64,000 bases of DNA. It comes from Escherichia coli. Its GTDB lineage: Bacteria > Pseudomonadota > Gammaproteobacteria > Enterobacterales > Enterobacteriaceae. The notes beneath the pieces were generated by a model. That model searched no databases. It saw only the letters and a program-made list of their open reading frames with translations, and was not told the DNA's origin. Within the stretch, counting starts at the first letter, position 1; each line of letters opens with the position of its first letter. The stretch lies in assembly GCF_044324875.1 (NCBI RefSeq), contig NZ_CP172185.1. The stretch is one strand, 5' to 3'. Positions 7,411 to 20,287 of the stretch are shown piece after piece. The translations under genes and the position numbers were made by a program.

Positions 7411-7611
7411 GTTAAGCATCCACAGGCTGGTATCTGCAACCGATTATAACGGATGCTTAACGTAATGCGTGAAGTATGGGCATACTTTATCAATTAGTGT
7501 TTTTTGCCGTTTCATAATGTTTCAGGTTGTGCATTATGTTTTTGATTATAAACAAATTTGTGATTTTTCTTGTTCCAGCTTGTTTCACGTTGTAGCCCTT
7601 TGTGCAACGAT

Positions 7612-7637
7612 CGGTGTAGTTAATGGTGTAGTTAATT
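7612..7637. repeat. attL core of the integrated element: CGGTGTAGTTAATGGTGTAGTTAATT, itself a tandem GGTGTAGTTAAT duplication.
   Basis: Identical 26-mer at 18721–18746; a further ~45 bp upstream of each copy is imperfectly similar. Confidence 0.65.
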
Positions 7638-8888
7638 GTGATGACCGGATTCAAAATTATGAGCAGAGCACTTAACAAGCTGAGCGATACACAGCTAAGG
7701 AAAATCAACGGCACACCCGCCCAAAAAACAGCCTTTCTTAATGACGGTGGAAACTTGAGCGTCAGGCATTCAACCAGCGGCCTTTTAACCTGGTATTTCA
7801 CTTACAGGGCCGGAACGGGAAGGGGGGCATCACCGGAACGCATTAAGCTGGGAAATTATCCTGATCTGAGCCTGAAATCAGCCAGGGAAAAAGCCGCCCA
7901 GTGTCGCGCATGGCTGGCTGAGGGGAAAAATCCACGTCATGAGATGAATTACACCGTACAGGAAGCGTTAAAGCCTGTAACGGTTGGCGATGCGCTCACC
8001 TACTGGCTTGAGTCGTACGCAAAGGAAAACCGTGTGGATTATGACCCACTGAAAAAGCGGCTAAATAATCACGTAATACAGCACATTGGCCCTATGCCGC
8101 TGGATAAATGCGAGCTACGGCACTGGCTGGCCTGTTTTGATCGGGTGGCAAAGCAAGCCCCTGTTTCCGCCGGGTTCCTGCTACAGACATGCAAACAGGC
8201 GCTTAAGTTCTGCCGGAAGCGGCGCTATGCAATCAGCAACGTTCTTGATGATATGAGTGTGGCTGACGTTGGGAAAAAACCGGATATAGGCGAACGTGTC
8301 TTAAGTACCAAAGAACTGGGCGAATTATTGCAGGCACTGGACAAAAAAATATTTTCCCCTTACTACGTCGCACTAATCCGCCTCCTGATTGTTTTCGGAT
8401 GCCGGACAGTAGAACTGAGGTTATCGGAGATCGGCGAGTGGGATTTTACCGAAATGCTCTGGACCGTTCCGAAGGAGCACAGCAAAACGAAGGTAGCCAT
8501 ATTCCGGCCCATACCGGAAGCGATACTGCCGTTCGTCACGCAGCTGATGGAGCAGAACAGGCACACGGGCTTATTGCTGGGGGAAGTGAAACAGGAAACC
8601 AGCGTGTCGCAGTACGGCAGATTAGTGCACAGGAGGCTTAAACACCCTCACTGGTCACTGCATGACATCCGGCGCACCTTTACAACGATGCTGAACGATT
8701 TAGGCGTGGATCCTCACGTCGTGGAGCAGCTTACAGGCCACCAGATGCCAGGAATGCAGCGAGTTTATAATCATTCCCGTTATCTGGATGCGAAACGCAA
8801 TGCGCTGGATATGTGGACGGAGCGGTTAGGGATACTGGCGGGAGCACATGAAAACGTAACCACGCTACCAGTAACCAGAAGAAAATAA
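7638..8888 (+). CDS. int: Tyrosine-type site-specific integrase (P4-like family).
   Basis: Starts immediately after attL; C-terminal catalytic region ...LHDIRRTFTTMLNDLGVDPHVVEQLTGHQMPGMQRVYNHSRYLDA... (R, H-x-x-R, Y). Start ambiguous: GTG 7638, ATG 7641 or ATG 7659. Confidence 0.85.
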   Translation: MMTGFKIMSRALNKLSDTQLRKINGTPAQKTAFLNDGGNLSVRHSTSGLLTWYFTYRAGTGRGASPERIKLGNYPDLSLKSAREKAAQCRAWLAEGKNPRHEMNYTVQEALKPVTVGDALTYWLESYAKENRVDYDPLKKRLNNHVIQHIGPMPLDKCELRHWLACFDRVAKQAPVSAGFLLQTCKQALKFCRKRRYAISNVLDDMSVADVGKKPDIGERVLSTKELGELLQALDKKIFSPYYVALIRLLIVFGCRTVELRLSEIGEWDFTEMLWTVPKEHSKTKVAIFRPIPEAILPFVTQLMEQNRHTGLLLGEVKQETSVSQYGRLVHRRLKHPHWSLHDIRRTFTTMLNDLGVDPHVVEQLTGHQMPGMQRVYNHSRYLDAKRNALDMWTERLGILAGAHENVTTLPVTRRK

Positions 8889-8936
8889 TTTTTTTCGTGT
8901 TTTTTCAGTATGCGCATACTGGATAAGTGCACAGAT

Positions 8937-8970
8937 ACAACGTGAAACAATAAGCAACAACGTGAAACAA
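8937..8970 (+). promoter_or_regulatory. Two direct CAACGTGAAACAA repeats, candidate integrase arm-type binding sites.
   Basis: The same motif occurs inverted beside attL (7583–7598, CTTGTTTCACGTTG) and beside attR (18681–18700, TGTTCCACGTTGTTTCAT). Confidence 0.4.
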
Positions 8971-9262
8971 CCACGAACAAGAGGTCAAAAAGTATACAGA
9001 TTTATAAGTTGCTGATTTTTAATGCTCAACTGGTTTTTTATACATTAGCGAATAACGCTTTAAATAGTGAGAAAAAAGTCATAAAACGAGATTTTATGCC
9101 TTTGCATAATACTGAATTAAAATGATTTTTATTAAAATCACCCCGTTTCTGTAAAATACCCGCCACCAACATTTGCCAACTCTGAATCACCCTGACACAA
9201 TCAGACACATCCCAACGCAATAGAACACGAAATAACTCTTTAAGAAACGAAAGGGGGCAATA

Positions 9263-9451
9263 GTGTTAAGCACTGATCGGTTTATACGTGAAAAAGAATG
9301 CGAAAAGCTAACAGGCCTTAGCCGCTCATGCCGCTACCGCCTGGAAAAGGCCGGACAATTCCCATCACGGCGTAAGCTGGGCGGTCGTTCCGTTGGCTGG
9401 TCTTTATCCGAAGTTCTGGCATGGAAGGAAAGCTGCGAGGCAGTTCACTAA
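9263..9451 (+). CDS. alpA: AlpA-family phage transcriptional regulator / excisionase-like HTH protein (62 aa, GTG start).
   Basis: MLSTDRFIREKECEKLTGLSRSCRYRLEKAGQFPSRRKLGGRSVGWSLSEVLAWKE matches the AlpA/CP4-57 regulator pattern; sits just downstream of int. Confidence 0.75.
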   Translation: MLSTDRFIREKECEKLTGLSRSCRYRLEKAGQFPSRRKLGGRSVGWSLSEVLAWKESCEAVH

Positions 9452-9777
9452 AAAGACTGGCGGCACACAGCCGCCACCCATCCACTAATACAGAGATTTA
9501 ACCATGAAGACTGGATATACGCCCGAACAGGGGCGGGGCTTCGTTCGGCCTGGTGAAACTGAAAAACAACAAAATCGCGGTTTTTCAGGCATAAAAAAAG
9601 CGGCCCCGATAAGGAGCCGCCTTTCTGAACAATTAACCTACAGCGCAAAAAATGAATCTGAGCAGTGGGATTATATCAACCGTGCAACGAAGCGCCACAA
9701 TTGCCGGATAACGGGCAAAGAAAAGGCCACCTGTCACGGTGGCCAATGTGATCAGTGTGGTGGCTTGCTGGTGGCTA

Positions 9778-9969
9778 TCAACCTTTGGGTTCTATACCGC
9801 GCCGCTTTAGTTCAGCGCGCCCCAACTCTTTAAGCCAGTTGGCTAGGCTTATGCCGTCGCTCTGCGCTTCTTTGTCGAATTGCTCTTTTAGCTCTGGAGA
9901 AATTCGCATTCTGAATTGTGGGGATTGCCCATCACCCTTAGGGCTTTTATCACGTTTGATTGTTGACAA
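9778..9969 (-). CDS. Small ribbon-helix-helix (Arc/CopG-like) DNA-binding protein, candidate repressor, divergent from the replication operon.
   Basis: 63 aa, ...RMRISPELKEQFDKEAQSDGISLANWLKEL...; followed on the minus strand by a stem plus T-run terminator (~9590–9628). Confidence 0.5.
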   Translation of the reverse strand: MSTIKRDKSPKGDGQSPQFRMRISPELKEQFDKEAQSDGISLANWLKELGRAELKRRGIEPKG

Positions 9970-10016
9970 GTGGTCACCTATTAAATTAGCCTTTCTATTG
10001 TTAGGTGGTCACCTTA
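9969..10016. promoter_or_regulatory. Divergent promoter/operator region with two direct GTGGTCACCT repeats.
   Basis: AGTGGTCACCT at 9970 and GGTGGTCACCT at 10005, between the RHH gene start and the first gene of the rightward operon. Confidence 0.35.
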
Positions 10017-10088
10017 ACACGGGGACACTTAAAAAAGCAAAGCCCGAAGGCGCTAGGAACACCAACGGGCTTCTAACCACAAACCGTT

Positions 10089-10301
10089 ATGAGAGGTAGT
10101 TTTATGGCTGTAAGACAGCATACCCCACGACTAGCGCACACACAAACCGCCTTTGTGTGGCGTTTTCTGGCACTGAGTGCCGGAGAATCTCAAATCATCC
10201 ACGTAACCGCCTGGACGGAACGCGAAGCGCGTAGCCGTTGCCCGTCCGGTTGTGTTGCTGTATTCGCCGCCCGTATTCGTCAGGGGGTGTACCATGATTA
10301 A
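10089..10301 (+). CDS. Small protein resembling host cell-division inhibitor Icd-like proteins of P4-type satellites (weak call).
   Basis: MAVRQHTPRLAHTQTAFVWRFLALSAGESQIIHVTAWTEREARSRCPSGCVAVFAARI...; first gene of a translationally coupled operon; alternative start at 10104. Confidence 0.4.
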   Translation: MRGSFMAVRQHTPRLAHTQTAFVWRFLALSAGESQIIHVTAWTEREARSRCPSGCVAVFAARIRQGVYHD

Positions 10302-10662
10302 CCTGTCACTTACCGATCTTAACCGCGTTCAGTTTCGTGAGAAATTTACCGGACAGCTACTCGTCAATGTGGAGAACGGGCGCATAGTGCGTAATTATCA
10401 CCTGCCGGATGGTGCAATTGCCGGAAGCGTTGAAGCATTGCTGGAACTGGCGGAACGTGCGCGACTGATTAAGCCGTCAACGAGCCATCACGATGATGAT
10501 CTGCATTTTACCGGATGTATGGTGAGTCACTACGAAAACGGCGTCGAGGTATCCTGCGAACGGCTGCGTGATGATTGCTGTTTCGGCACACTGCCGGAAT
10601 TTATCGAATTGCTGACCAGTTGCGGATATCAGGTTATTCAGGGGGTGCGCCATGTGCAATAA
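10294..10662 (+). CDS. Hypothetical protein (~122 aa), satellite early operon.
   Basis: ORF with start/stop overlap to both neighbours; no recognisable motif. Confidence 0.55.
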   Translation: MINLSLTDLNRVQFREKFTGQLLVNVENGRIVRNYHLPDGAIAGSVEALLELAERARLIKPSTSHHDDDLHFTGCMVSHYENGVEVSCERLRDDCCFGTLPEFIELLTSCGYQVIQGVRHVQ

Positions 10663-11107
10663 CATCCGTCCGGACGCAGCAGGCGAAGCCATCATAACGC
10701 TAATGCACGCGCTGATTGATATTTCATGCACGGCAGCAACCGCAGAAAAACACATTACCAGAGAGCCGGAATATACAGGGGCAATAATCCCGCATTCGCT
10801 GGCCTACGCACAGCTAACCGCTGATATGGCGCTGAATGAGGCTAAAGCCATCCTGATTGCTGATTGTGAAAATGGGGGGGGGGTTATGCGTGATGATCGT
10901 TTTAATTCCCTGAAACAGGAATTTTCCGGCGTTCCTGATAATGCGGCTGATGCGCTTTCGTCAATATCTGAAATTATGCGGGTGGCTTTTTTCTTTCTTT
11001 GCACTGATGAGCACAGGGATACAGGGCTAAATATTCTTGATATCGCCGCTAATTATGCTGATTTCGTAACGGAAACTGTTTTAAGAAAAACGACGGACGG
11101 GGATTAA
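10652..11107 (+). CDS. Hypothetical protein (151 aa), satellite early operon.
   Basis: Intact ORF overlapping the upstream stop; no recognisable motif. Confidence 0.55.
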   Translation: MCNNIRPDAAGEAIITLMHALIDISCTAATAEKHITREPEYTGAIIPHSLAYAQLTADMALNEAKAILIADCENGGGVMRDDRFNSLKQEFSGVPDNAADALSSISEIMRVAFFFLCTDEHRDTGLNILDIAANYADFVTETVLRKTTDGD

Positions 11108-11108
11108 T

Positions 11109-11342
11109 ATGCGTGATATTTACCACGAAACAATAGACCGCGCATTTCTTGCACTTTCTCACAGTGAAAATATGTTGGAAATATTGCGCATATGTCTTGA
11201 AACGCTTGGAGATAATGAACGTGATAAACAGAAATCAATGATTGTCACGGCATTAATAACGCTTCTTGAGCCTGTAATAAATGAGTTGCAGGAAATAGAG
11301 ACATTACACGACCAGTATAAAGCGCCCCACACCGGAGAATAA
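11109..11342 (+). CDS. Hypothetical protein (77 aa), satellite early operon.
   Basis: Starts 2 bp after the upstream stop. Confidence 0.5.
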   Translation: MRDIYHETIDRAFLALSHSENMLEILRICLETLGDNERDKQKSMIVTALITLLEPVINELQEIETLHDQYKAPHTGE

Positions 11343-11347
11343 AAAAC

Positions 11348-11635
11348 ATGAAAAATAAAAATTCTGGCGTTAATGCCAGCGGCCCCGCTCGTCCTGAAAT
11401 CCGTCCCGGCGATATTTTCCGTGATAACTACGGCGGCACGGTAATGATTAAGGGCGTGGAAGAACGGCGCGTAACCTACCGCCGTGATGGCTACGAATAT
11501 GACTGCGTTATGCCTGTTTATCAGTTCCGGCGTGATTTCACGCTGGTGGGCCATCGTAAAGCCGTTAATCAGAAACGTGCTGCAAGTTATATCCGCAAAA
11601 TCCGTGAAATGCTGGTCGCAGGGGGTAAGAAATGA
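11348..11635 (+). CDS. Hypothetical protein (95 aa), overlaps the replication gene start.
   Basis: Intact ORF; stop overlaps the start of the next gene (ATGA-type coupling). Confidence 0.55.
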   Translation: MKNKNSGVNASGPARPEIRPGDIFRDNYGGTVMIKGVEERRVTYRRDGYEYDCVMPVYQFRRDFTLVGHRKAVNQKRAASYIRKIREMLVAGGKK

Positions 11636-13038
11636 AACTTGCACCGAACGTAAAACTGTTACCGAAAGATAAACACACTGAGGCGGTTATTTTTGCGGGT
11701 GATAATGCTCACTCCTTTGCAGAACATTACATGATTGCACAGGCCAAAAAAGCAGGCGATCCCATCCCTCCGGTTTACCTGGGCCGTTATCAGTTAAGCG
11801 AACTGGACAACTTACAGATTGTTGATGAAGGACGATACAGGGCAAAGGTCATACGCGCCGGAAACCTGGACGATATGCAGATGCTGACCATTGCCACAAA
11901 ACTGGCGATCGCCGGAGTCCAGGAGGCGCGCCTACTTTCTGAAAATTTCGAACTGCTGGAGGACTGGAGCGACCAGCTACCACGACTACGGGAAACATGG
12001 GAGAGAGGGGAAAGCCTGGTCATGAATGGCGGAAAGCGAAAAATCACACTTCCCATCTCATGGGGTTCTGAGGGATTCGATGCGCAGCAAAGCTACGTCA
12101 TTAAGGGGCTTATTCCGGCTGAGTCATTATGCAGCACCTACGGGGCCAGCGGTTCTTATAAATCGTTCCTCGCCATTTCCTGGTCGTGCCATGTTGCCAC
12201 AGGTATGGCATGGGGAGGCCGCAGGGTAAGTAAGGGTGCGGTTATCTATATCGCTGGCGAAGGCAGCATGGGCGTAAAACGCCGCGTTAAGGCGTGGGAG
12301 ATAACCCACGACAAGGTGGTTACAGATTTGTGCATCATTAACGCGCCTGTTTTCCCTGCATCGCCTGACTATGTGGAGCAGGTTATCAGGACTGCCGGAC
12401 TTGTTAAGAGCAGAACGGGCGAAAATGTGCGGCTGATTGTGATCGACACGCTGGCCCGTTGCTTTGGTGGGAATGATGAAAATGATTCCCGTGATATGGG
12501 CGCATTTATCCAGGGGTGTGACGCGATAAAGCAGGCCACAGGGGCCACGGTGCTGGTGGTTCACCATTCCGGCAAGGATGAAACAAAGGGGGCGCGTGGT
12601 TCCAGTGCATTCCGTGCCGCGCTTGATGCAGAGTACCGAATCAGCCGCGAAAATTCAGACGTTACAGCACTGGTCGCAGCATGTACGAAGATGAAGGACG
12701 CAGAGGAGCCAAAAGAGAGCGCATACGACCTTAAAAGCGTGGAGGTGTTCACCGATACAGATGGCGAAGAAATTGTGTCCATGGTGGTGATTGACGTTCC
12801 CCGCGCCCCTGCTGAACTGGAGCGCATCGAGGAGGCAGGCAACAAGACGGAAAACCATACCGCGCTATGGGGGTGCATCCGTTCACGCACACAGAACGGC
12901 GACAAGTGCACGATCCCGCTGTTACGTGATGACATGAAACGGCTTGGGTATGACGTGAAAAATATGCGGCGATGGTTAGCCAAACTGGAAAAAGACGCCG
13001 TGATTTACATTGATGGTGATGATGTAGGACCACTGTAA
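11632..13038 (+). CDS. Replication initiator / RecA-fold P-loop ATPase (RepA/AAA_25-like primase-helicase family).
   Basis: 468 aa; P-loop-like YGASGSYKSF, Walker-B-like LIVIDTLARCFGG, VLVVHHSGKDETKG; followed directly by iterons. Confidence 0.75.
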   Translation: MKLAPNVKLLPKDKHTEAVIFAGDNAHSFAEHYMIAQAKKAGDPIPPVYLGRYQLSELDNLQIVDEGRYRAKVIRAGNLDDMQMLTIATKLAIAGVQEARLLSENFELLEDWSDQLPRLRETWERGESLVMNGGKRKITLPISWGSEGFDAQQSYVIKGLIPAESLCSTYGASGSYKSFLAISWSCHVATGMAWGGRRVSKGAVIYIAGEGSMGVKRRVKAWEITHDKVVTDLCIINAPVFPASPDYVEQVIRTAGLVKSRTGENVRLIVIDTLARCFGGNDENDSRDMGAFIQGCDAIKQATGATVLVVHHSGKDETKGARGSSAFRAALDAEYRISRENSDVTALVAACTKMKDAEEPKESAYDLKSVEVFTDTDGEEIVSMVVIDVPRAPAELERIEEAGNKTENHTALWGCIRSRTQNGDKCTIPLLRDDMKRLGYDVKNMRRWLAKLEKDAVIYIDGDDVGPL

Positions 13039-13240
13039 AAAGTGAGTAGTAAAAGTGAGTAATGGTGAGGTTTTTACAAAATATTAACACAATTACTCAC
13101 TTTCTCACCTGTATACATGCTCAAAAGTGAGCAGTGAAAAAACACTTATGAAACATGCACATATAAAACACAAAAATCTCAAGTGAGACGAAGTGAGACG
13201 CTTTAAAAAGTGAGTAGTAAAAGTGAGAGATGGTGAGCAA
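13039..13240. repeat. Iteron cluster, putative satellite replication origin.
   Basis: A ~30-bp unit AAAAGTGAGTAGTAAAAGTGAG(T/A)(A/G)ATGGTGAG occurs twice (13037–13070 and 13203–13237), with about ten AAGTGAG-type motifs including tandem AAGTGAGACGAAGTGAGACG and an inverted copy. Confidence 0.55.
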
Positions 13241-13608
13241 TGAATAAAAACCGAACAGCAGGACAAAATACCGAAGGTAAATTTATGAACACTGAAATTG
13301 AAACACTGAGCATATCAACTGCCCTTCCTGGCTGGTGGGCTAAGTTCAAAGACGACGACGGCACGGAATGGTATAGCCCAATTGCTGCATGGGCGCTTTG
13401 TGATATCCACCATTTCGGCACCGGAGATACTTACCGCGAAATCTTACCCGTGCTGACCAGTGAGCTGGGCATGAGTCCGCATAGTCCTGATGAGGGAATG
13501 TGCGAGTGCCTTTATCTGCCGGATAAGAAGTTTGTTCACTGTGGTGAATCGATGGTATTTGCCTGGTATCCGGTTAACGACAGCAGCAATAGCGGTACTC
13601 TGGAGTAA
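13240..13608 (+). CDS. Hypothetical protein (122 aa; alternative start MNTEIETL at 13285).
   Basis: ORF immediately downstream of the iterons. Confidence 0.45.
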   Translation: MNKNRTAGQNTEGKFMNTEIETLSISTALPGWWAKFKDDDGTEWYSPIAAWALCDIHHFGTGDTYREILPVLTSELGMSPHSPDEGMCECLYLPDKKFVHCGESMVFAWYPVNDSSNSGTLE

Positions 13609-13611
13609 ATC

Positions 13612-13854
13612 ATGAAGGTAAACCACAAAAAGACAGATCACCGCGCCATTGACCTTACAGAGCACTGGCTGAGGGTGGCGATAAAAATCATCGACCGCAA
13701 CACGGGGGAAGGATACGCGAAAGCACATCCCGAACTGATAAGTGCATTCATGACCACAGCGGCGGCAAACTTTGCCACGCTGACAGAGCGGGATATTGCC
13801 GAAGCAGAACAGGTAACAACCATCAACGTTAAAACCAGTGAGGTGGAATCATGA
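13612..13854 (+). CDS. Hypothetical protein (80 aa).
   Basis: ORF whose stop overlaps the ssb-like start. Confidence 0.45.
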   Translation: MKVNHKKTDHRAIDLTEHWLRVAIKIIDRNTGEGYAKAHPELISAFMTTAAANFATLTERDIAEAEQVTTINVKTSEVES

Positions 13855-14261
13855 CAGCACAGATAGCGGCTTACGGGCGGCTGGTGGACGACCCGCAGGT
13901 AAAACAGACCAGTAAGGGTACACCGATGACGCTGGCGCGTATGGCGGTATCTTTACCATGCGGCCAGGCACAGGACGGACAGGCGACGTTATGGTTATCG
14001 GTCATCGCATTTGGCAAACAGGCCGACTTTCTGGCTAAACATCAAAAAGGCGACGTTGCCAGCGTATCCGGCACGATGCAGGTCAGCCAGTGGACCGGAC
14101 AGAACGGGGAAACGCGGCAGGGTTATCAGGTTATTGCAGACAGCGTAATCAGTGCCCGTGCGGCACGTCCTGGCGGGAACAGACGCAAAACCACAGGCAC
14201 ACAGGGTAATCAGCCACCAGCGGGAGGCGATGACCCTTACGGTGATGATATTCCGTTCTGA
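13851..14261 (+). CDS. ssb: Single-stranded DNA-binding protein homologue (short OB-fold) with a conserved SSB C-terminal tip.
   Basis: WLSVIAFGKQADFLAKHQKGDVASVSGTMQVSQWTGQNGETRQGYQV parallels E. coli SSB [48 protein letters not shown]; Gly/Pro-rich linker; ends ...DPYGDDIPF (E. coli SSB ends DFDDDIPF). Confidence 0.8.
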   Translation: MTAQIAAYGRLVDDPQVKQTSKGTPMTLARMAVSLPCGQAQDGQATLWLSVIAFGKQADFLAKHQKGDVASVSGTMQVSQWTGQNGETRQGYQVIADSVISARAARPGGNRRKTTGTQGNQPPAGGDDPYGDDIPF

Positions 14262-14271
14262 GGGGGTGACG

Positions 14272-14544
14272 ATGGTACATGACCGCATAGCGGAGGAACT
14301 CGAGGCAAAAGGATTTTACCGGAGGGCGGCGGCGCGATGGGGTGAAGTTATGAGGCTGGTGAGCACTGACAAGGAGCGCGAACAGGTGGCAATGCGACGG
14401 CTGGAATGTTCCCTGAAGGCACAGAGGCCACCGGAGCCGCCGGATGATTTAGGCGCTCTGAAAAGGTCAGTTAATCGCACTGAAAAACAAATGGGGATAG
14501 CTGGTATTGGCAAAGCAATATGGCGCAACTACCCGCAGAAGTGA
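14272..14544 (+). CDS. PerC-family transcriptional regulator-like protein (~90 aa).
   Basis: MVHDRIAEELEAKGFYRRAAARWGEVMRL... resembles the PerC N-terminal pattern; six-frame ORF 14152..14544 trimmed to the ATG after the ssb stop. Confidence 0.5.
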   Translation: MVHDRIAEELEAKGFYRRAAARWGEVMRLVSTDKEREQVAMRRLECSLKAQRPPEPPDDLGALKRSVNRTEKQMGIAGIGKAIWRNYPQK

Positions 14545-14550
14545 GCACAC

Positions 14551-14620
14551 AGCCGGAGCAATCCGGCTTTTTTACGCCTAAAAAAAGCCCGATAAGGTCA
14601 AAGGGGGCTTATCGGGCTTT
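14551..14620 (+). terminator. Two tandem rho-independent terminators ending the satellite replication/regulation operon.
   Basis: AGCCGGAGCAATCCGGCTTTTTT, then AAAGCCCGATAAGG-tcaaagggg-CTTATCGGGCTTTT. Confidence 0.6.
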
Positions 14621-14784
14621 TGTAGAGGAGGTTTTTTATGGTGCACTGGCACACATGATCGGGATAATCATTTCATAATTTGCAACATAACTCAATATTG
14701 TTGCGCAAAATGCAATCATGATTATAATCAGGACTGGATGAACATCCAGTTATGATTTTTTAAGTCAAAGAGGAATTTCTGACT

Positions 14785-14991
14785 ATGGCAGAAGAGAAAA
14801 AAGGCGGGGTGACGGTCTACATAAGCCCCGACATCGTGGAGGCGCTCAAGGAACGCCACCAGCAGAATGTAAAAGCAGGCATTGCGGCAGGACTTGATCC
14901 GCTGGCGATGGTTGAGCCGTCAACAGGCTGGCAGGTGCGTACCTATTTACGTGCGGCGCTGGGTATCAATCAGGTTCACGGAGGTGAATAA
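14785..14991 (+). CDS. Hypothetical small protein (68 aa), first gene of the head module (possible scaffold or assembly factor).
   Basis: ORF translationally coupled to the capsid gene; preceded by an AT-rich promoter region with palindromes TGATTATAATCA and TTGCGCAA. Confidence 0.45.
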   Translation: MAEEKKGGVTVYISPDIVEALKERHQQNVKAGIAAGLDPLAMVEPSTGWQVRTYLRAALGINQVHGGE

Positions 14992-16046
14992 TGACAGGCA
15001 AAGCAAAGGCACTTACAACTAACCAGCTTTTCGCGTACCTGAATCGCGGGGATATTTCGGAATATAAATTTAGTCCGCTGTTTACCACGCTGTTTTTCCC
15101 GAACGTGGCGACCTTCAACACCCAAAACATCATGCTGGACACCCTGGACATTGAAGAGGTTACGATGTCAGCGTTCTGTTCTCCTATGGTGGGTAGTCAG
15201 GTCCAGCGCGATAAAGGGTACGAAACCAGCACGATTAAACCAGGCTACATGAAGCCAAAGCACGAAATCGATCCAACAAAGACCATCATGCGCATGGATG
15301 GAGAAGATCCGGCACAGCTTAACGATCCAACTTACCGCCGTATGCGCCTGATTACTGGCAACATGCGCCGCCAGATAAACGCCATTAAGGCGCGCGTGGA
15401 ATGGCTGGCGGTGAATGCGGTAACGACCGGAAAAAACATCATTGAGGGCGAAGGCATAGAACGCTATGAAATCGACTGGAAAATACCGGAAAACTGCATC
15501 ATACAGCAGGCCAGTGGTAAAAAATGGTCCCAGCAGGATAAAGACATGCACGACCCAATCTATGACATCGAGCTTTATGCTGATCAGGCAGGTTGCCCCG
15601 CCAACGTCATGATTATGGGCGGTGAGGTATGGCGCACATTACGCAGCTTTAAAAAATTCCGTGAACTGTACGATCTTTCCCGTGGATCAGAATCCGCCGC
15701 CGAGCTGGCCTGTAAAAACCTGGGCGAAGTGGTGAGCTTTAAAGGCTATCTTGGTGATCTGGCCCTTATCGTCTATTCCGGCAAATACACTGACAGCGAC
15801 GGGACCGAAAAATATTTCCTTGAGCCTGATTTGCTGGTCCTGGGTAACACCAACAATAAAGGGCTGGTGGCATATGGTGCGATTATGGATCAGGAAGCGG
15901 TAAGAACGGGCGCAACGCAAAACATGTACTACCCGAAAAACTGGATTGAGGACGGCGATCCGGCGATTGAGTACGTGCAGACGCACAGCGCACCGCAGCC
16001 TGTACCGGCAGATATTCGCAAATTTGTTACCGTCAAAATTGCTTAA
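14991..16046 (+). CDS. Phage lambda gpE-family major capsid protein homologue.
   Basis: 351 aa; collinear matches to recalled lambda gpE: FSPLFTTLFFP vs FDPLFLRLFF, PGYMKPKHEIDP vs PGYVKPKHEVNP, DPTYRRMR vs DPAYRRRR, VSFKGYLGDLALIVYSG vs VSYKGMYGDVAIVVYSG, YYPKNW vs RYPKNW. Confidence 0.85.
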   Translation: MTGKAKALTTNQLFAYLNRGDISEYKFSPLFTTLFFPNVATFNTQNIMLDTLDIEEVTMSAFCSPMVGSQVQRDKGYETSTIKPGYMKPKHEIDPTKTIMRMDGEDPAQLNDPTYRRMRLITGNMRRQINAIKARVEWLAVNAVTTGKNIIEGEGIERYEIDWKIPENCIIQQASGKKWSQQDKDMHDPIYDIELYADQAGCPANVMIMGGEVWRTLRSFKKFRELYDLSRGSESAAELACKNLGEVVSFKGYLGDLALIVYSGKYTDSDGTEKYFLEPDLLVLGNTNNKGLVAYGAIMDQEAVRTGATQNMYYPKNWIEDGDPAIEYVQTHSAPQPVPADIRKFVTVKIA

Positions 16047-16057
16047 CGGGGGATTCT

Positions 16058-16393
16058 ATGGACGCTCCATACATTGAGTTATTTTCAGGCAGCCAACAGG
16101 TATCCACGACGCTGGTACATTTTGCCGCTGATGCTGGCGTTATTCAGGAATTTACCCCGCTGATGCTGGCAGACAATGGCGAGTTTAAGCCGTGGGATGG
16201 TAAGGAATCTGGCAAGGCTGTTTATCTGACCTCGTACCCTGTGGACACGTCAAAGCAGAAATCAGCACAGTGTTACAAGACGGGGATATTCAATATTGCC
16301 GCCGTTAACTGGCCTGACAGCGTCGACACCGATGCGAAAAAATGCGCCGCCTTTGCGGGTTCCGGCGTATCCGTTCAGCCGCTGGCCCGATAA
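16058..16393 (+). CDS. Phage lambda gpD-like head decoration protein homologue.
   Basis: 111 aa; FTPLMLADNGEFKPWDG / KTGIFNIAAVNWPDSVDTDAKKCAAFAGSGVSV parallels lambda gpD MTPLMLDTSSRKLVAWDG / [34 protein letters not shown]. Confidence 0.7.
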   Translation: MDAPYIELFSGSQQVSTTLVHFAADAGVIQEFTPLMLADNGEFKPWDGKESGKAVYLTSYPVDTSKQKSAQCYKTGIFNIAAVNWPDSVDTDAKKCAAFAGSGVSVQPLAR

Positions 16394-16467
16394 GCAGGGG
16401 GAACGATGGCACAAACCAGGGCGATGACGGCGACATCTATCGCATACTGAAAACCATCTGAGACAAG

Positions 16468-16491
16468 GCCGGAGAAATCCGGCTTTTTTTG
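16468..16491 (+). terminator. Rho-independent terminator after the head genes, just upstream of cos.
   Basis: GGCCGGAGAAATCCGGCTTTTTTT; near-identical to the 14551 terminator. Confidence 0.55.
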
Positions 16492-16499
16492 CGGGTCCT

Positions 16500-16640
16500 T
16501 TCCGGCATGTGGACCCGTTACGGGGCGTCGACCTCGCACGTTTTCGCTATTTATGAAAATTTTCCGGGAAAAAGCATGTCAGTTCTTCTTGTTATTAACA
16601 TATTGTTTTTAAAGAAATAACTATCAAGAAAGAAACGACA
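16500..16640. other. Lambda-type cohesive-end site (cosQ/cosN/cosB-like); predicted 12-nt overhang region GGGCGTCGACCT at 16523–16534.
   Basis: GTTACGGGGCGTCGACCTCGCACGTTTTCGCTATTTATGAAAATTTTCCGG is near-identical to the lambda genome ends (GTTACG|GGGCGGCGACCTCGCGGGTTTTCGCTATTTATGAAAATTTTCCGG); a downstream GAAAGAAACGACA resembles a lambda cosB R site. Confidence 0.8.
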
Positions 16641-16710
16641 TCATAATGATGAAAAATCTGTTTTTTTTGGCATTTCATGTCGTAACTGATTTTTGATAAG
16701 GAATTGCTGA

Positions 16711-17295
16711 ATGAATGTTAATAAAAAGAGGCTTGCCGAAATTTTTAACGTGGACCCGCGGACGATTGAACGCTGGCAGTCACAGGGGCTTCCTTGCGTC
16801 TCCAAAGGCAGTAAGGGCATTGAATCTGTATTTGATACTGCCATGGCAATTCAGTGGTATGCGCGGAGGGAAACTGATATCGAAAACGAAAAGCTCCGCA
16901 AAGAACTGGACGATTTGCGTGCGGCAGCGGAGTCAGATTTACAACCCGGCACCATTGACTATGAACGCTATCGGCTCACAAAAGCGCAGGCAGATGCGCA
17001 GGAACTTAAAAACGAGCGCGATCGCGGTGACGTGATTGATACAGAGTTTTGCATGTACGCGCTTTCAAAACTGGCGAGTCAGATTTCATCAATCATGGAC
17101 AGCCTCCCGCTTACTATGCAAAGGAGCTTCCCACAGATGACCCCCGCCATGCTGGATGGCCTGAAAAAAGAAGTTGTCAGAGCCTGTAACGCATGCACAA
17201 AACTTGATGAAAACATCCCGCGAATGCTGTCCGATTATCTGATGGAAACTACCGGAAATGTGCCTGATAAGTTTCAGCCGGATAAAGACAAGTAA
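16711..17295 (+). CDS. Terminase small subunit, lambda Nu1 family (TerS/Rpp-like).
   Basis: [29 protein letters not shown]...[44 protein letters not shown] tracks lambda Nu1 MEVNKKQLADIFGASIRTIQNWQEQGMPV...[44 protein letters not shown]. Confidence 0.85.
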
Positions 17296-17536
17296 CGTAG
17301 TGCACAATGACCGAAGCCAGTTTACTGACTGGCTTTCAGCGTTGCGCTGGTGGGCGTTATGCGTCAGTGATAAACGTCTCCAATATTACTGATATTCGAC
17401 ATCCCCACCTCTCCACACCAGCTCGAATATCATTTTTCTCATTAAAAACAGGACATTAAAAACTGGTCAGATGTCCCATAAAAAGCCAAATGGGACAGGT
17501 CAAAAGCTTTTTTTGCAGTAATTTTCAATAGGTTAC

Positions 17537-17935
17537 TTGATGTGGTGGTGTCCCATGAAAATTCAAAAATCAGCCGTTTTCCGCGATGCTCCCGCCCCGT
17601 GGCAGGGCACCCCACAAGGAGGACCCGCCATCACTATGGAGGACATGACCATGACCGAGACCGAAGCGCTCGGGATAATCCGCAGTATTACCGGAATCAG
17701 CCAGCAGGCTGGCGAACAGGAGGCCACGCAGCCGGACAGCGTGATCGCCGAAAATTACGTGCGTGTTGTTGCTGATGTAATGCGCCGTGATGGTATTGAG
17801 CTTAACGGCGTGGATATGCGCGACATACGAATCAGAGTACTAGAGTTGCTGGCATACCGTCGACGCGTGGCGATGTATCAGGAGAGCGCGAAAAACACTT
17901 ATCAGTGGAAGAAGCCGGAGCGGTTACGGCGGTAA
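17537..17935 (+). CDS. Hypothetical protein (likely ~100 aa from an internal ATG near 17636, which has an RBS).
   Basis: ORF downstream of terS; no recognisable motif; ends 1 bp before the palindrome array. Confidence 0.45.
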   Translation: MMWWCPMKIQKSAVFRDAPAPWQGTPQGGPAITMEDMTMTETEALGIIRSITGISQQAGEQEATQPDSVIAENYVRVVADVMRRDGIELNGVDMRDIRIRVLELLAYRRRVAMYQESAKNTYQWKKPERLRR

Positions 17936-18560
17936 CTGGTTGATATTTTCGAAATTCGCCAGCGGCGAACATCGGGGAAACCAGCCTAACCAGTTGATTC
18001 TTTCGGAAACAGCCATTGGCGGAATCCGGCGCGGTAACTTGCTGATATTCCCGATAACGCAAAATTGCGCTGGCTACATCCCTCACATCTGAGGACTGAT
18101 AATGCGACATTGCGCTGGCTGGCAAAGTGCAAAATTGCACGATGGCCTAACCCATTGATTATTTCGAAAACCTGCAATGCAGGAAATCGGGGAAGTAAGC
18201 CTAAGCTATTGATTCTTTCGGAAACCTCAATTTGAGGAAGTCGGCGCGGTAACTCGCTGAACTTAAAGCAAACCTCAAAATTGAGCTGGCTGAATAATCA
18301 TTATGATTACGCAGATGATTAAGGAATGACCGAAGGCGGAAATTCGCCTGTGGTTGATGGGGGAGTTGCAGATCTGCAACTCGACCATGAAACTACGGAA
18401 ACTACCCGTAGTTTGGGTAGTAAGAGTAACACCCAGATTTTGGGACTTACTCGTGATACCCAAATTTGGAGTATCGGTGGCAACCATAACGACTTTCGTT
18501 ACGGTTGATGCTTTTACCCCATTGGGGGAAAGGTATTACGATAATCATAACACCTACCGA
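17936..18560. repeat. Array of many distinct short palindromes in a diverged, duplicated scaffold (unknown function).
   Basis: Scaffold TTGAT(A/T)(T/A)TTTCGAAA...ATCGGGGAA..AGCCTAA occurs twice, and TTGATTCTTTCGGAAAC...TCGGCGCGGTAACT..GCTGA twice; different palindromes in each copy (e.g. TTCGCCAGCGGCGAA, CCTGCAATGCAGG, GTTGCAGATCTGCAAC). Full list in findings. Confidence 0.7.
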
Positions 18561-18720
18561 ACAGGTAAAGCCCACCAGCCTGATTGACATTTAACCGGAA
18601 AAAAAGCCAGGTAGCCCCGTTATGTGGATCCCCATATCGACAGCAACGCCCCCTTAAAATTACCCGCCTTTATATTTCTTGTGCCTATTTGTTCCACGTT
18701 GTTTCATACAGTGCGCCGAA

Positions 18721-18746
18721 CGGTGTAGTTAATGGTGTAGTTAATT
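18721..18746. repeat. attR core, direct repeat of attL.
   Basis: Identical 26-mer to 7612–7637. Confidence 0.65.
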
Positions 18747-18826
18747 TGCGATTTTTGGCACTTTTGTTTGTGTATATTTTTAATTAAATCAATACATTAA
18801 CTAATATCGGTGATAAAAGGGCATAT

Positions 18827-20287
18827 TTATTCATCTTTCGGCGCAGAATGCTGGCGACCAAAAATCACCTCCATCCGCGCACCGCCCAGCATGCTCTCTC
18901 CGGCGACGATTTTACCCTCATATTGCTCGGTGATTTCGCGGGCTACCGCCAGCCCTACACCTTGCCCAGGGCGTAAAGTATCAACCCGTTGACCACGGTC
19001 GAAAATGACCTCTCGCTTGCTTAATGGAATACCGGGGCCATCATCCTCGACCACAATATAGAGATGCTCGTCGGTTTGCCTTGCAGATATTTCGACAAAC
19101 TCGAGGCAATATTTACAGGCATTATCCAGCACGTTGCCCATCACCTCGACAAAATCGTTCTGCTCACCGACAAAGCTGATCTCTGGCGAAATATCGAGAG
19201 AGATATTGACCCCTTTGCGTTGATACACTTTGTTCAGCGCCGAGGTGAGATTGTCCAGCAGTGGGGCGACCGGATGTAGCTCGCGGCTAAGCAATGTCCC
19301 GCCGCGCATACTGGCACGATGCAGGTAGTAGCCAATTTGCTGTGAAATGCGACTGATTTGCTCCAGCATTACCGGCTCAGCATCACTGACGCTCATCTTC
19401 TCACTACGCAGAGAACGCAGCGTACTTTGCAGCACCGCCAGTGGCGTTTTCAGACTATGGGTCAGGTCGGTGAGCGTTGTACGATATTTGTCGTAACGTT
19501 CGCGTTCACTTTTTAACAATCGGTTCAGGTTTCGTACCAGACTGGTCAGTTCTCGCGTTGTGGCTGGATTGAGCAATTCGCGGTTATGTTCTTCCAGTTC
19601 GCGGACTTCTTTTGCCAGGGCTTCGATGGGGCGTAAACTCCACCTGGCGGCGACCCACAGCAGCGGGATCACTAACAGCAGATTGGCTGAGAGCACATAG
19701 ATAAACCAGCTCCAGACCATATAGGAACTTTTTAGCTCCACCGGAATGGTATCCACCACCACAATGGTCAACTTTGGCATCCGCGATGTTGCCGGGTAGA
19801 CGTTTACCGCCACCGAGTGGGTCATCTCCGCGTCGTCATCATCTTCCCGCACTTCCTGCAACTGTTGCTGTATCGAATGATCTCCACTCAGCAAGAGGCT
19901 GGTATCGTTAACATCCGCTTCAATTTCATGAAAACCATTCGATTTCAGCCAGTCAGGCTGGATCATCTTCATCAGCCAGGGCACGTCACGTTGCGCCCAT
20001 AAAAGCTGCCCGTTCTCATCATAAATTAGCGTCATAGTGGGGCTTTGCTTGTCGATATTTTCGGGTAACTCGACATGCAACTTATTGTTTTCCCACTTCG
20101 CAAGGGTATAGAACAGATTGCTCTCGCCACGTAACAGCCGAAACGTAGTTTTATCGAAACTGACGCTATAACCGATCAGCGCGACCATTCCGTAGGCAAG
20201 CGAAAGCACCAGTACAACCGCTGCCGTTGCCAATAGAAAACGTACCCGCAGCGAGAGCGGGAAAAAAAGACGCAGTAATTTTTTCAT
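18827..20287 (-). CDS. phoQ: Sensor histidine kinase PhoQ.
   Basis: 486-aa ORF; HAMP/histidine-kinase motifs ([17 protein letters not shown]); overlaps phoP stop. Confidence 0.95.

Follow-up and report, generated by a model that had tools for sequence, protein, structure and literature searches.

The distal end of a phage satellite in an Escherichia coli chromosome raises the question of what a gene-free stretch crowded with short palindromes could be for. The satellite, an island of the phage-inducible chromosomal island (PICI) type, occupies bases ~7600-18800 of the 64,000-nucleotide window that we analyzed (contig NZ_CP172185.1 of assembly GCF_044324875.1; all positions refer to this window), and its last small open reading frame (ORF) is followed by ~850 bp of gene-free DNA before the next gene, phoQ (18827-20287, minus strand). 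A first-pass annotation, made without database searches, had described positions 17936-18560 as a dense array of different palindromes and had offered three candidates: a structured RNA, a set of decoy or operator sites, or single-stranded DNA (ssDNA) hairpins used in replication or packaging. The evidence favors the second of these. Sequence comparison gives good support for viewing the part 17933-18330 as an array of composite protein-binding DNA sites, in each of which a site for integration host factor (IHF) is joined to a palindromic operator at a fixed distance, and these units are very probably derived from operators that lie within phage genes for Rha-domain proteins.

The density of the palindromes is real. 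Counting perfect inverted repeats with arms of at least 5 nt and a centre of at most 3 nt, we found 12 distinct repeats in 17933-18560 as compared to 2.06 ± 1.41 (maximum 9) in 500 dinucleotide shuffles, and no other segment of equal size in the 64 kb reaches this number. Several of the palindromes listed by the first-pass annotation are present as inverted repeats with a centre of 1-3 nt (for example CGCAA-AA-TTGCG) rather than as strict palindromes. The alternation of two scaffolds in a higher-order repeat was likewise borne out, as 17933-18045 and 18148-18260 are 74% identical over 113 nt, and a third, shorter repeat family, GATAACGCAAAATTGCGCTGGCT, is present in three copies. The limits of the array had to be redrawn, however: it starts at 17933 and not at 17936, since the TAA that ends the upstream ORF (17933-17935) already contributes to the first IHF consensus and belongs to the first unit, and what had been taken for a single array of 620 bp falls into two parts, a variable one built of 48-54-bp units (17933-18330) and a near-invariant block (18330-18560).

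The familiar classes of repeats that had been set aside from the letters alone do not appear to account for the region. Similarity between the scaffolds amounts to only 74-87%, and the variable parts are palindromic, which does not fit clustered regularly interspaced short palindromic repeats (CRISPR), and no cas-like ORFs were seen among the neighboring genes. Iterons of the plasmid type do not fit either, as the palindromes all differ and the array lies ~5 kb from the replication gene (11632-13038), beside which the earlier annotation places an iteron cluster (13039-13240). A ToxI-type array is contradicted by the result of Tandem Repeats Finder, whose only match is at 18722-18745, outside the array, and by the lack of any gene before phoQ. 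Finally, homologs occur only in phage Rha genes and at the 3' end of satellites and not as dispersed intergenic sites, and the region is probably distinct from repetitive extragenic palindromic (REP) elements, including their IHF-binding RIP form, and from enterobacterial repetitive intergenic consensus (ERIC) elements, a judgement reached without comparison to a REP consensus.

The scaffold itself is best understood in terms of IHF, as its TTGAT is the reverse complement of the IHF consensus WATCAANNNNTTR. Four of the 13 exact matches to this consensus in the 64 kb are found within 282 bp (17933-18214), at 17933, 17987, 18148 and 18202 and all on the minus strand; of the 18 window matches to the looser form WATCARNNNNTTR (WATCAR), five are in the array, the fifth site being at 18035. 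Units of the first half thus consist of an IHF site (TAAnnnnTTGAT on the plus strand), a spacer of 10-11 nt and a palindrome. For comparison we drew on 22 distinct islands, taking from each the sequence that follows the small ORF. All 22 arrays are mosaics of one unit plan with the head TAAnnnn(T/C)TGA(T), and the centre of the palindrome is located +22.5 to +24 bp from the first T of TTGAT in all but two of the ~65 units scored, the two exceptions being units of the B1 type for which the script chose the neighboring repeat CGGAATCCG. The spacers vary in sequence while the distance to the palindrome stays fixed. In the 23 distinct class I units of these 22 arrays, the consensus TAA carries 1.7-2.0 bits of information and the four N positions before TTGAT carry 0.6-1.2 bits. 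Fixed consensus bases combined with free N positions are the signature of an IHF site, unlike the pattern of plain homology or of antisense pairing, and therefore point to a role at the level of DNA rather than of an antisense or structured RNA.

In the window, the units from 17933 to 18294 all lie on the minus strand. Unit A1 (17933-17986) opens with the exact IHF consensus TATCAACCAGTTA (17933-17945), followed by the palindrome TTCGCCAGCGGCGAA (17955-17969), and unit B1 (17987-18034) with the exact consensus AATCAACTGGTTA (17987-17999), followed by CAGCCATTGGCGG (18010-18022). Next comes a class II unit (18035-18080) with the IHF-like sequence TATCAGCAAGTTA (18035-18047), which fits WATCARNNNNTTR, then CGCAAAATTGCG (18058-18069) and CTGGCT. 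Three palindromic modules without a full head occupy 18081-18147: CCTCACATCTGAGG (18081-18094), the degenerate copy GATAATGCGACATTGCGCTGGCT (18098-18120) and GTGCAAAATTGCAC (18127-18140). The plan then recurs, with unit A2 (18148-18201; exact consensus AATCAATGGGTTA at 18148-18160, palindrome CCTGCAATGCAGG at 18171-18183), unit B2 (18202-18249; exact consensus AATCAATAGCTTA at 18202-18214, palindrome CCTCAATTTGAGG at 18225-18237) and a second class II unit (18250-18294) made up of the head TAACTCGCTGAAC (18250-18262), CTCAAAATTGAG (18274-18285) and CTGGCT. The last stretch of the variable part, 18295-18329, holds the palindrome TAATCATTATGATTA, after which come CGCAG and ATGATTA, a third half-site. 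At this site (window 18295-18323) islands L006, L099 and L029 have TAATCATTATGATTA swapped for TGGTCATAATGACCA or TGGTGATAATCACCA; as both arms change together, this suggests a second family of sites with variable specificity. On the minus strand of 17933-18297 adjacent units are spaced 54 or 48 bp apart, both multiples of three, and several consecutive units can be read in one frame as pseudo-peptides (..SQLNFEVCFKFSELPRRLPQIEVSERINSLG..); other islands break this frame, and we take it for a trace of coding origin rather than for a gene.

The key fact, which the first-pass reader could not see, is that the palindromes and their flanks reproduce sites located inside phage Rha/Roi genes. Seven palindrome types, in eight units, have exact or near counterparts in phages, always within a gene for a Rha-domain protein and with the same codon position and relative orientation from gene to gene. 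The carriers are the roi genes of HK022, HK620 and H-19B, gene L14 of phiP27, genes annotated as 'DNA-binding protein' in Shiga toxin (Stx) phages, and genes that encode a Rha domain only. The longest of these matches, window positions 18197-18244, is 94% identical over 48 nt, in antisense, to the roi or 'anti-repressor Ant' genes of HK620, H-19B, many Stx phages and Kapi1, and includes the B2 palindrome CCTCAATTTGAGG, found in roi of HK620, H-19B and Stx phages. The A2 palindrome CCTGCAATGCAGG matches CTGCATTGCAG of HK022 roi as well as roi alleles from IMG/VR, the B1 13-mer CAGCCATTGGCGG recurs identically and at the same place in phiP27 L14 ('anti-repressor Ant'), and for A1 (TTCGCCA..) the nearest phage counterpart is TTCGCCATTGGCGCA, in the Rha/KilAC 'DNA-binding protein' gene after cro of the Stx2 phage EH2201. 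Units of related islands add CCCCCATTGGGGG and TTCCACAGACTGTGGAA, with counterparts in the PPMV and PQTVE alleles, respectively. Among the class II palindromes, CGCAAAATTGCG with the flank TTGGCT occurs in phage genes of the Rha-only kind, where it encodes R-N-F-A, and CTCAAAATTGAG has a 22/23-nt match in a Rha-family gene of a Klebsiella phage at homologous codons (K-L-N-F-E-V); apart from this 23-nt match, a BLAST search of the class II region against phage genomes returned nothing significant. The class II counterparts are Rha proteins of the TIGR02681 family.

Scanning viral contigs with the scaffold retrieved roi-type genes for proteins of 235-263 aa with the motif at codons ~40-60, where it encodes P-x-x-x-V-[S/F]-E-x-I-N-N-L-G and the x-x-x codons form the 13-bp palindrome. 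The phage palindromes sit where the wing of the DNA-binding domain is encoded, beside an intragenic IHF site, and they differ by allele (CCTCAATTTGAGG, CCTGCAATGCAGG, CCACCATTGGGGG, TCACCGTTGGTGG). Another class of roi carries the palindrome TTCCACAG(A/T)CTGTGGAA, which it shares with units of related islands. HK022 Roi combines a Phage_pRha with an ANT/KilAC domain, and in an alignment of seven Roi alleles the variation falls mostly on the recognition helix and the palindrome codons, while residues 60-100 are near-invariant. A profile-based locus search for Roi relatives yielded only near-identical alleles and no additional palindromes.

Some further observations concern these phage genes. 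The roi class with TTCCACAG(A/T)CTGTGGAA (protein ..FPQTVEIENKQSLG..; L348, L361, L365, L373, L386) has no IHF consensus beside its palindrome, and the island unit with the same palindrome (L099/L116) has a perfect IHF site, TAAACCGTTGATT. In the recognition helix of two otherwise divergent Roi alleles that share a CTGCA half-site (HK022 and the L007 class), one position is hydrophobic, either V or I (..NVK[V/I]S..), where other Roi classes have R or Q, which hints at a correspondence between recognition-helix residue and base. The Rha/KilAC gene that contains palindrome and IHF site is found early within the immunity region in Stx2_EH2201 (L141 958-1665), directly after cro, and in phiP27 (L142 951-1658), near helix-turn-helix (HTH) genes of that region, while roi of HK022 is in the nin region. 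Rha proteins have also been noted in the immunity region of 'Eru' Stx phages (PMC8951638).

In the HK022 roi gene the 11-bp palindrome CTGCATTGCAG is followed 10 nt on by the only exact IHF consensus of the gene, with the palindrome centre at +23. In 1996 Clerget and Boccard reportedly showed that the Roi protein of HK022 binds DNA at a site that lies in the roi gene itself and in close linkage to an IHF site, that this binding is stabilized by IHF, and that in IHF mutants lytic growth is blocked by Roi; similar behavior of Rha from phi80 and P22 was reportedly described by Henthorn and Friedman in 1995. As the HK022 sequence fits this account, we interpret the phage element as an operator for self-regulation with assistance from IHF, and the island units as copies of such operators, taken from many alleles and set on an IHF scaffold.

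The proteins of the island include no Rha-domain protein, and translation of the minus strand of the array gives only Rha wing-motif fragments of 14-18 residues, so that the array would have to be bound in trans by Rha/Roi proteins of phages. Since the proteins whose genes match the units differ in their C-terminal domains, functions that require DNA binding only fit best. On this basis the array would most likely act as a multi-specific, IHF-assisted trap for phage Rha/Roi proteins that is amplified upon island replication, a proposal to which we give not quite an even chance. The early Rha/Roi protein of whichever lambdoid phage grows in the cell would occupy units of the array, IHF would strengthen each complex of protein and unit, and the resulting high-affinity trap, its effect multiplied as the island replicates, would upset the dosage or timing that these phage regulators set for themselves. 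More tentatively, the array could represent a fast-evolving 'operator library' of IHF-boosted decoys, copied from the Rha/Roi self-regulatory sites of many phages and reshuffled like an immune repertoire, with which the satellite would interfere with or manipulate lambdoid phages by DNA alone, without a protein.

Several points weigh against this interpretation. For the palindromes in 18081-18147 and 18295-18560 we found no phage counterparts, and a scan with GTGCAAAATTGCAC gave only matches outside the context of a Rha gene. Synonymous variation in phage roi is lowest over the site (rank 1 of 74 windows, P = 1.4e-4), a result that is confounded by the choice of allele classes. All units are antisense to island transcription with no terminator before them, which leaves room for a contribution of antisense RNA. 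Among phage Rha/Roi proteins, binding to the protein's own palindrome has reportedly been described for HK022 Roi only; the benefit of trapping proteins whose biological role is itself unclear is speculative; and decoys for a self-repressing regulator mainly delay its accumulation rather than lower its steady level.

The distribution of the array also bears on its role. The region is matched, at least in part, in 1,914 of 5,426 complete E. coli genomes, and palindromes vary between copies, with unit content reshuffled between otherwise similar islands. ORF and array together form a module at the 3' end of islands that differ in their packaging genes (a lambda-like set, or a ClpP-capsid fusion with DUF1441), in their insertion sites (phoQ, tqsA, upstream of clpS) and in their arm repeats. 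A scan of genome contigs with a degenerate unit pattern was swamped by chance AT-rich matches in unrelated phyla and is uninformative on the breadth of the distribution. EcCICFT073, the prototype PICI of E. coli (L574; CFT073, NC_004431 1385000-1389208), has the same phoQ-adjacent site, gene order and small ORF, and its array contains three exact IHF sites and the palindromes TTCGCCAGCGGCGAA, CCTCAAATTGAAG (imperfect), TCCCCCATTGGGGGA and TTTCCACCATTGGTGGAAA. Lambda is a proven helper that mobilizes EcCICFT073 (PMC6092414), and we found no Rha/Roi gene in the lambda genome; the array is therefore dispensable for induction and packaging and is an accessory module outside the core life cycle of the satellite.

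The next most likely explanation, though in our judgement an unlikely one, sees in the region beside attR a bent nucleoprotein structure of Rha/Roi and IHF that serves as a helper sensor or as an architectural element, for example by stimulating excision, by insulating attP-int from late transcription or by marking the DNA. The phasing of the IHF sites at 54 bp, all facing one way, would suit such a structure, as would the position of the array, about 200-850 bp from the core of the attachment (att) site and upstream of int after circularization. There is precedent for a helper protein that directs satellite excision in PexA of phage ICP1 and the Vibrio phage-inducible chromosomal island-like element (PLE). 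On the other hand, lambda, without a Rha/Roi gene, both induces and mobilizes the array-bearing EcCICFT073 (PMC6092414), and in a related PICI the plasmid-borne alpA promoter alone suffices to sense the helper (PMC11773190). The array moreover occurs with different arm repeats and att sites and is far from the core for an attachment-site arm.

On the question of DNA or RNA, the main alternative is an antisense or structured RNA, which we consider improbable. Read-through from the late operon would produce a 3' tail whose hairpin loops, complementary to roi and rha mRNAs of many phages, start pairing and thereby silence them. With respect to transcription of the island, each unit is indeed in antisense to its phage gene, and there is no terminator between ORF and array (terminator-like matches on the plus strand at 17921 and 18140 are at shuffle level, and a search of the array gave neither a promoter-like nor a convincing terminator-like site). 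Identity to phage alleles is 94-100% in blocks of 19-48 nt, and the array RNA folds better than shuffles (z -3.7). The folding scores do not discriminate, however, because palindromes fold on either strand, and the opposite strand folds nearly as well. The 43 imperfect palindromes show no bias of G.T versus A.C between the strands, as G.U pairing in an RNA would leave, and in a scan against Rfam 15 the best match in the region, manA RNA, scored 15.9 bits against a gathering score of 55.2. The pattern of conservation also argues against an RNA: the units keep the IHF bases while the N positions, invariant in the phage targets, vary freely, the spacers diverge from the phage sequence with the geometry kept, and one unit possesses an IHF site that is absent from its phage counterpart. 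These results do not support the structured RNA or the ssDNA hairpins that the first-pass annotation had listed among its candidates.

It is more improbable still that the units are non-functional debris, scars of recombination between island and phage rha/roi genes that are retained by linkage only. Such an origin would account for the translation of minus-strand units into fragments of the Rha wing motif (..VSERINxLG, ..NFEVC..) and for the unit lengths of 54 and 48, which as multiples of three point to coding sequence. It does not account for the fact that only ~50 nt with IHF site and palindrome were ever kept and never the rest of the gene, nor for the head-to-tail arrangement in a single orientation or the selective conservation of the consensus positions; the position of the array is furthermore constant across island lineages, with matches in about a third of E. 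coli genomes.

An arm of the attachment site, in which the island integrase, the excisionase (AlpA) and IHF would assemble into a recombination complex, is very unlikely. The attR-end position and the IHF sites would be in line with it, but the same array and block are found with different arm repeats (GGTGTAGTTAAT or TGTGTGGTCAGT) and at the insertion sites phoQ, tqsA and upstream of clpS, from which we conclude that the array is not an attachment-site arm; in addition, the array is 215-850 bp from the core, where an arm would be expected within about 250 bp, and its palindromes match phage genes and not each other. Least likely of all are ssDNA hairpins for replication or packaging, or a minus-strand terminator or insulator against transcription from phoQ: the dense hairpin potential on both strands and the TTT(T/C)CG that follows each palindrome on the minus strand are outweighed by a cosN-like sequence 1.4 kb away beside terS, by a replication gene that lies elsewhere with the reported iteron cluster next to it, by the failure of any minus-strand site in the array to pass a terminator scan, and by the inability of either idea to explain the identity to sites of phage Rha genes or the IHF consensus.

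A composite operator array of this kind resembles several known systems without matching any of them. Closest is HK022 roi, where the palindrome is likewise followed by an exact IHF consensus 10-11 nt on, with 23 bp between its centre and the far end of the ATCAA core, and the likeness extends to sequence, with an A2 palindrome of HK022 type and a B2 palindrome of HK620/H-19B type. Phages have one site per gene, embedded in the coding sequence for its presumed binding protein and serving that gene, whereas the array has about ten tandem sites of differing specificity, in non-coding fragments of ~50 nt and in an element without a Rha/Roi gene. Titration loci include datA of E. coli, which consists of DnaA boxes and an IHF site and depends on IHF, and the incA iterons of P1. 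Like the array they cluster high-affinity sites that sequester a DNA-binding regulator, as do synthetic decoy arrays, which titrate by repeated binding sites (PMC7826281). Titration and decoy loci have one specificity, however, directed at a protein of their own element or cell, and the array has many, for proteins of foreign elements. Centromere-like sites provide a further comparison: sopC of F is built of tandem 43-bp repeats, each with an inverted repeat, and parS of P1 has an IHF site flanked by ParB boxes. Tandem units of ~50 bp with an inverted repeat and IHF-assisted assembly are thus common to both, but in the centromere-like sites the repeats are identical and the partner is co-encoded, while in the array the palindromes differ and partition genes are missing. 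The lambda-like cosB has the arrangement R3-I1-R2-R1 (PMC9026076). It shares with the array an IHF site between protein-binding repeats and the neighborhood of a packaging module, yet the R sites of cosB are not palindromes of varied sequence, and the cos of the island is upstream of terS (GGGCGTCGACCT, 16523). CRISPR arrays and solitary-repeat RNA decoys are similarly fast-changing, modular catalogues of short phage-derived sequences in a repeated scaffold; unlike them, the array has no cas genes, its variable parts are palindromes from one gene family at one position, and its scaffold is an IHF site.

In our literature search we found no paper that links PICIs to Rha/Roi or that describes a multi-specific array of foreign operators in a satellite. 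The parts are known, namely IHF sites and palindromic operators that belong to a family of phage regulators; what is new is their assembly, within a satellite, into an array of many specificities. Should the array indeed trap Rha/Roi proteins, it would constitute a new non-coding layer of the conflict between satellites and phages, present, at least partly, in roughly a third of sequenced E. coli and in the prototype EcCICFT073. Rha-domain proteins are very common in temperate phages, and to our knowledge no clear function has emerged for them in 30 years. The array would provide a direct experimental handle on these proteins, which would then recognize a site within their own wing-coding codons, with a specificity that diversifies from one allele to the next. 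With EcCICFT073 and its helpers, established systems for laboratory work are at hand, which makes the idea directly testable.

The second part of the region, the conserved block (18330-18560), contains the long palindromes GGCGGAAATTCGCC and GAGTTGCAGATCTGCAACTC, nested AAACTAC repeats, and CCCAGATTTTGGG, CCAAATTTGG, CAACCATAACGACTTTCGTTACGGTTG and CCCCATTGGGG. Its palindromes measure 20-27 bp and have a geometry unlike that of the units in the first half. The block is near-invariant in most islands and occurs with different att-arm repeats; it is missing from some islands (e.g. L079) and largely replaced in EcCICFT073. Variation between islands is too low in the block for covariation analysis, and BLAST against phage genomes gave no significant counterpart. 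It probably represents a further set of protein sites. The claim that the region holds no convincing ORF stands, with the qualification that RefSeq calls a hypothetical protein of 52 aa within the block in some genomes. The corresponding ORF encodes 60 aa (window 18326-18508, plus strand) in a poor ribosome-binding context, part of it being WP_001364204.1 (52 aa; L002 8488-8646), and about half of its few between-island substitutions are non-synonymous.

Directly upstream of the array, and linked to it in every case, is the small conserved ORF of 99 aa (17636-17935, plus strand; PHROG 1561), which had been put forward as a possible partner. Its conservation is far too strong for a protein that would have to recognize a dozen different palindromes. 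No Pfam domain was found in it, its AlphaFold model of three helices (mean predicted local distance difference test, pLDDT, 68) has no meaningful fold match in the PDB, and a locus search of genome contigs with the protein as query found nothing. The island further encodes an integrase, a small HTH protein, an Icd-like protein, a helicase/primase, a PerC-like regulator, a lambda E-like capsid protein (14991-16046), a D-like decoration protein and a Nu1-like small terminase (terS, 16711-17295). The cosN-like sequence GGGCGTCGACCT (16523-16534), which differs by one mismatch from lambda GGGCGGCGACCT, is found 177 bp upstream of the small terminase gene, with an equivalent in EcCICFT073 at L574:2559. 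This places the cos of the island there and not in the palindrome array, and the array was accordingly rejected as a cos site.

Beyond the array, the distal end of the island (18561-18795) contains a CCCACCAGCC motif at 18571 and a tandem pair of GGTGTAGTTAAT at 18722-18745, which is also found at 7612, beside int; the att core is probably near TTAATTAAATCAAT (18780-18793). More exactly, the 26-nt direct repeat CGGTGTAGTTAATGGTGTAGTTAATT, made up of two tandem 12-mers, is present at 7612-7637 beside int and at 18721-18746 near attR, surrounded by looser similarity of about 70 nt, and these repeats are probably arm-type sites of the integrase. Other islands (L129) have two copies of TGTGTGGTCAGT in place of the CGGTGTAGTTAATGGTGTAGTTAATT/GGTGTAGTTAAT arm repeat. 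Lastly, many islands have one to three copies of the motif (A/C)(T/C)CCACCAGC(T/C/A) in their distal non-coding tail, often where modules meet, and it is found in the window at 18571-18580 as well as in the distal regions of L079, L029 and L139.

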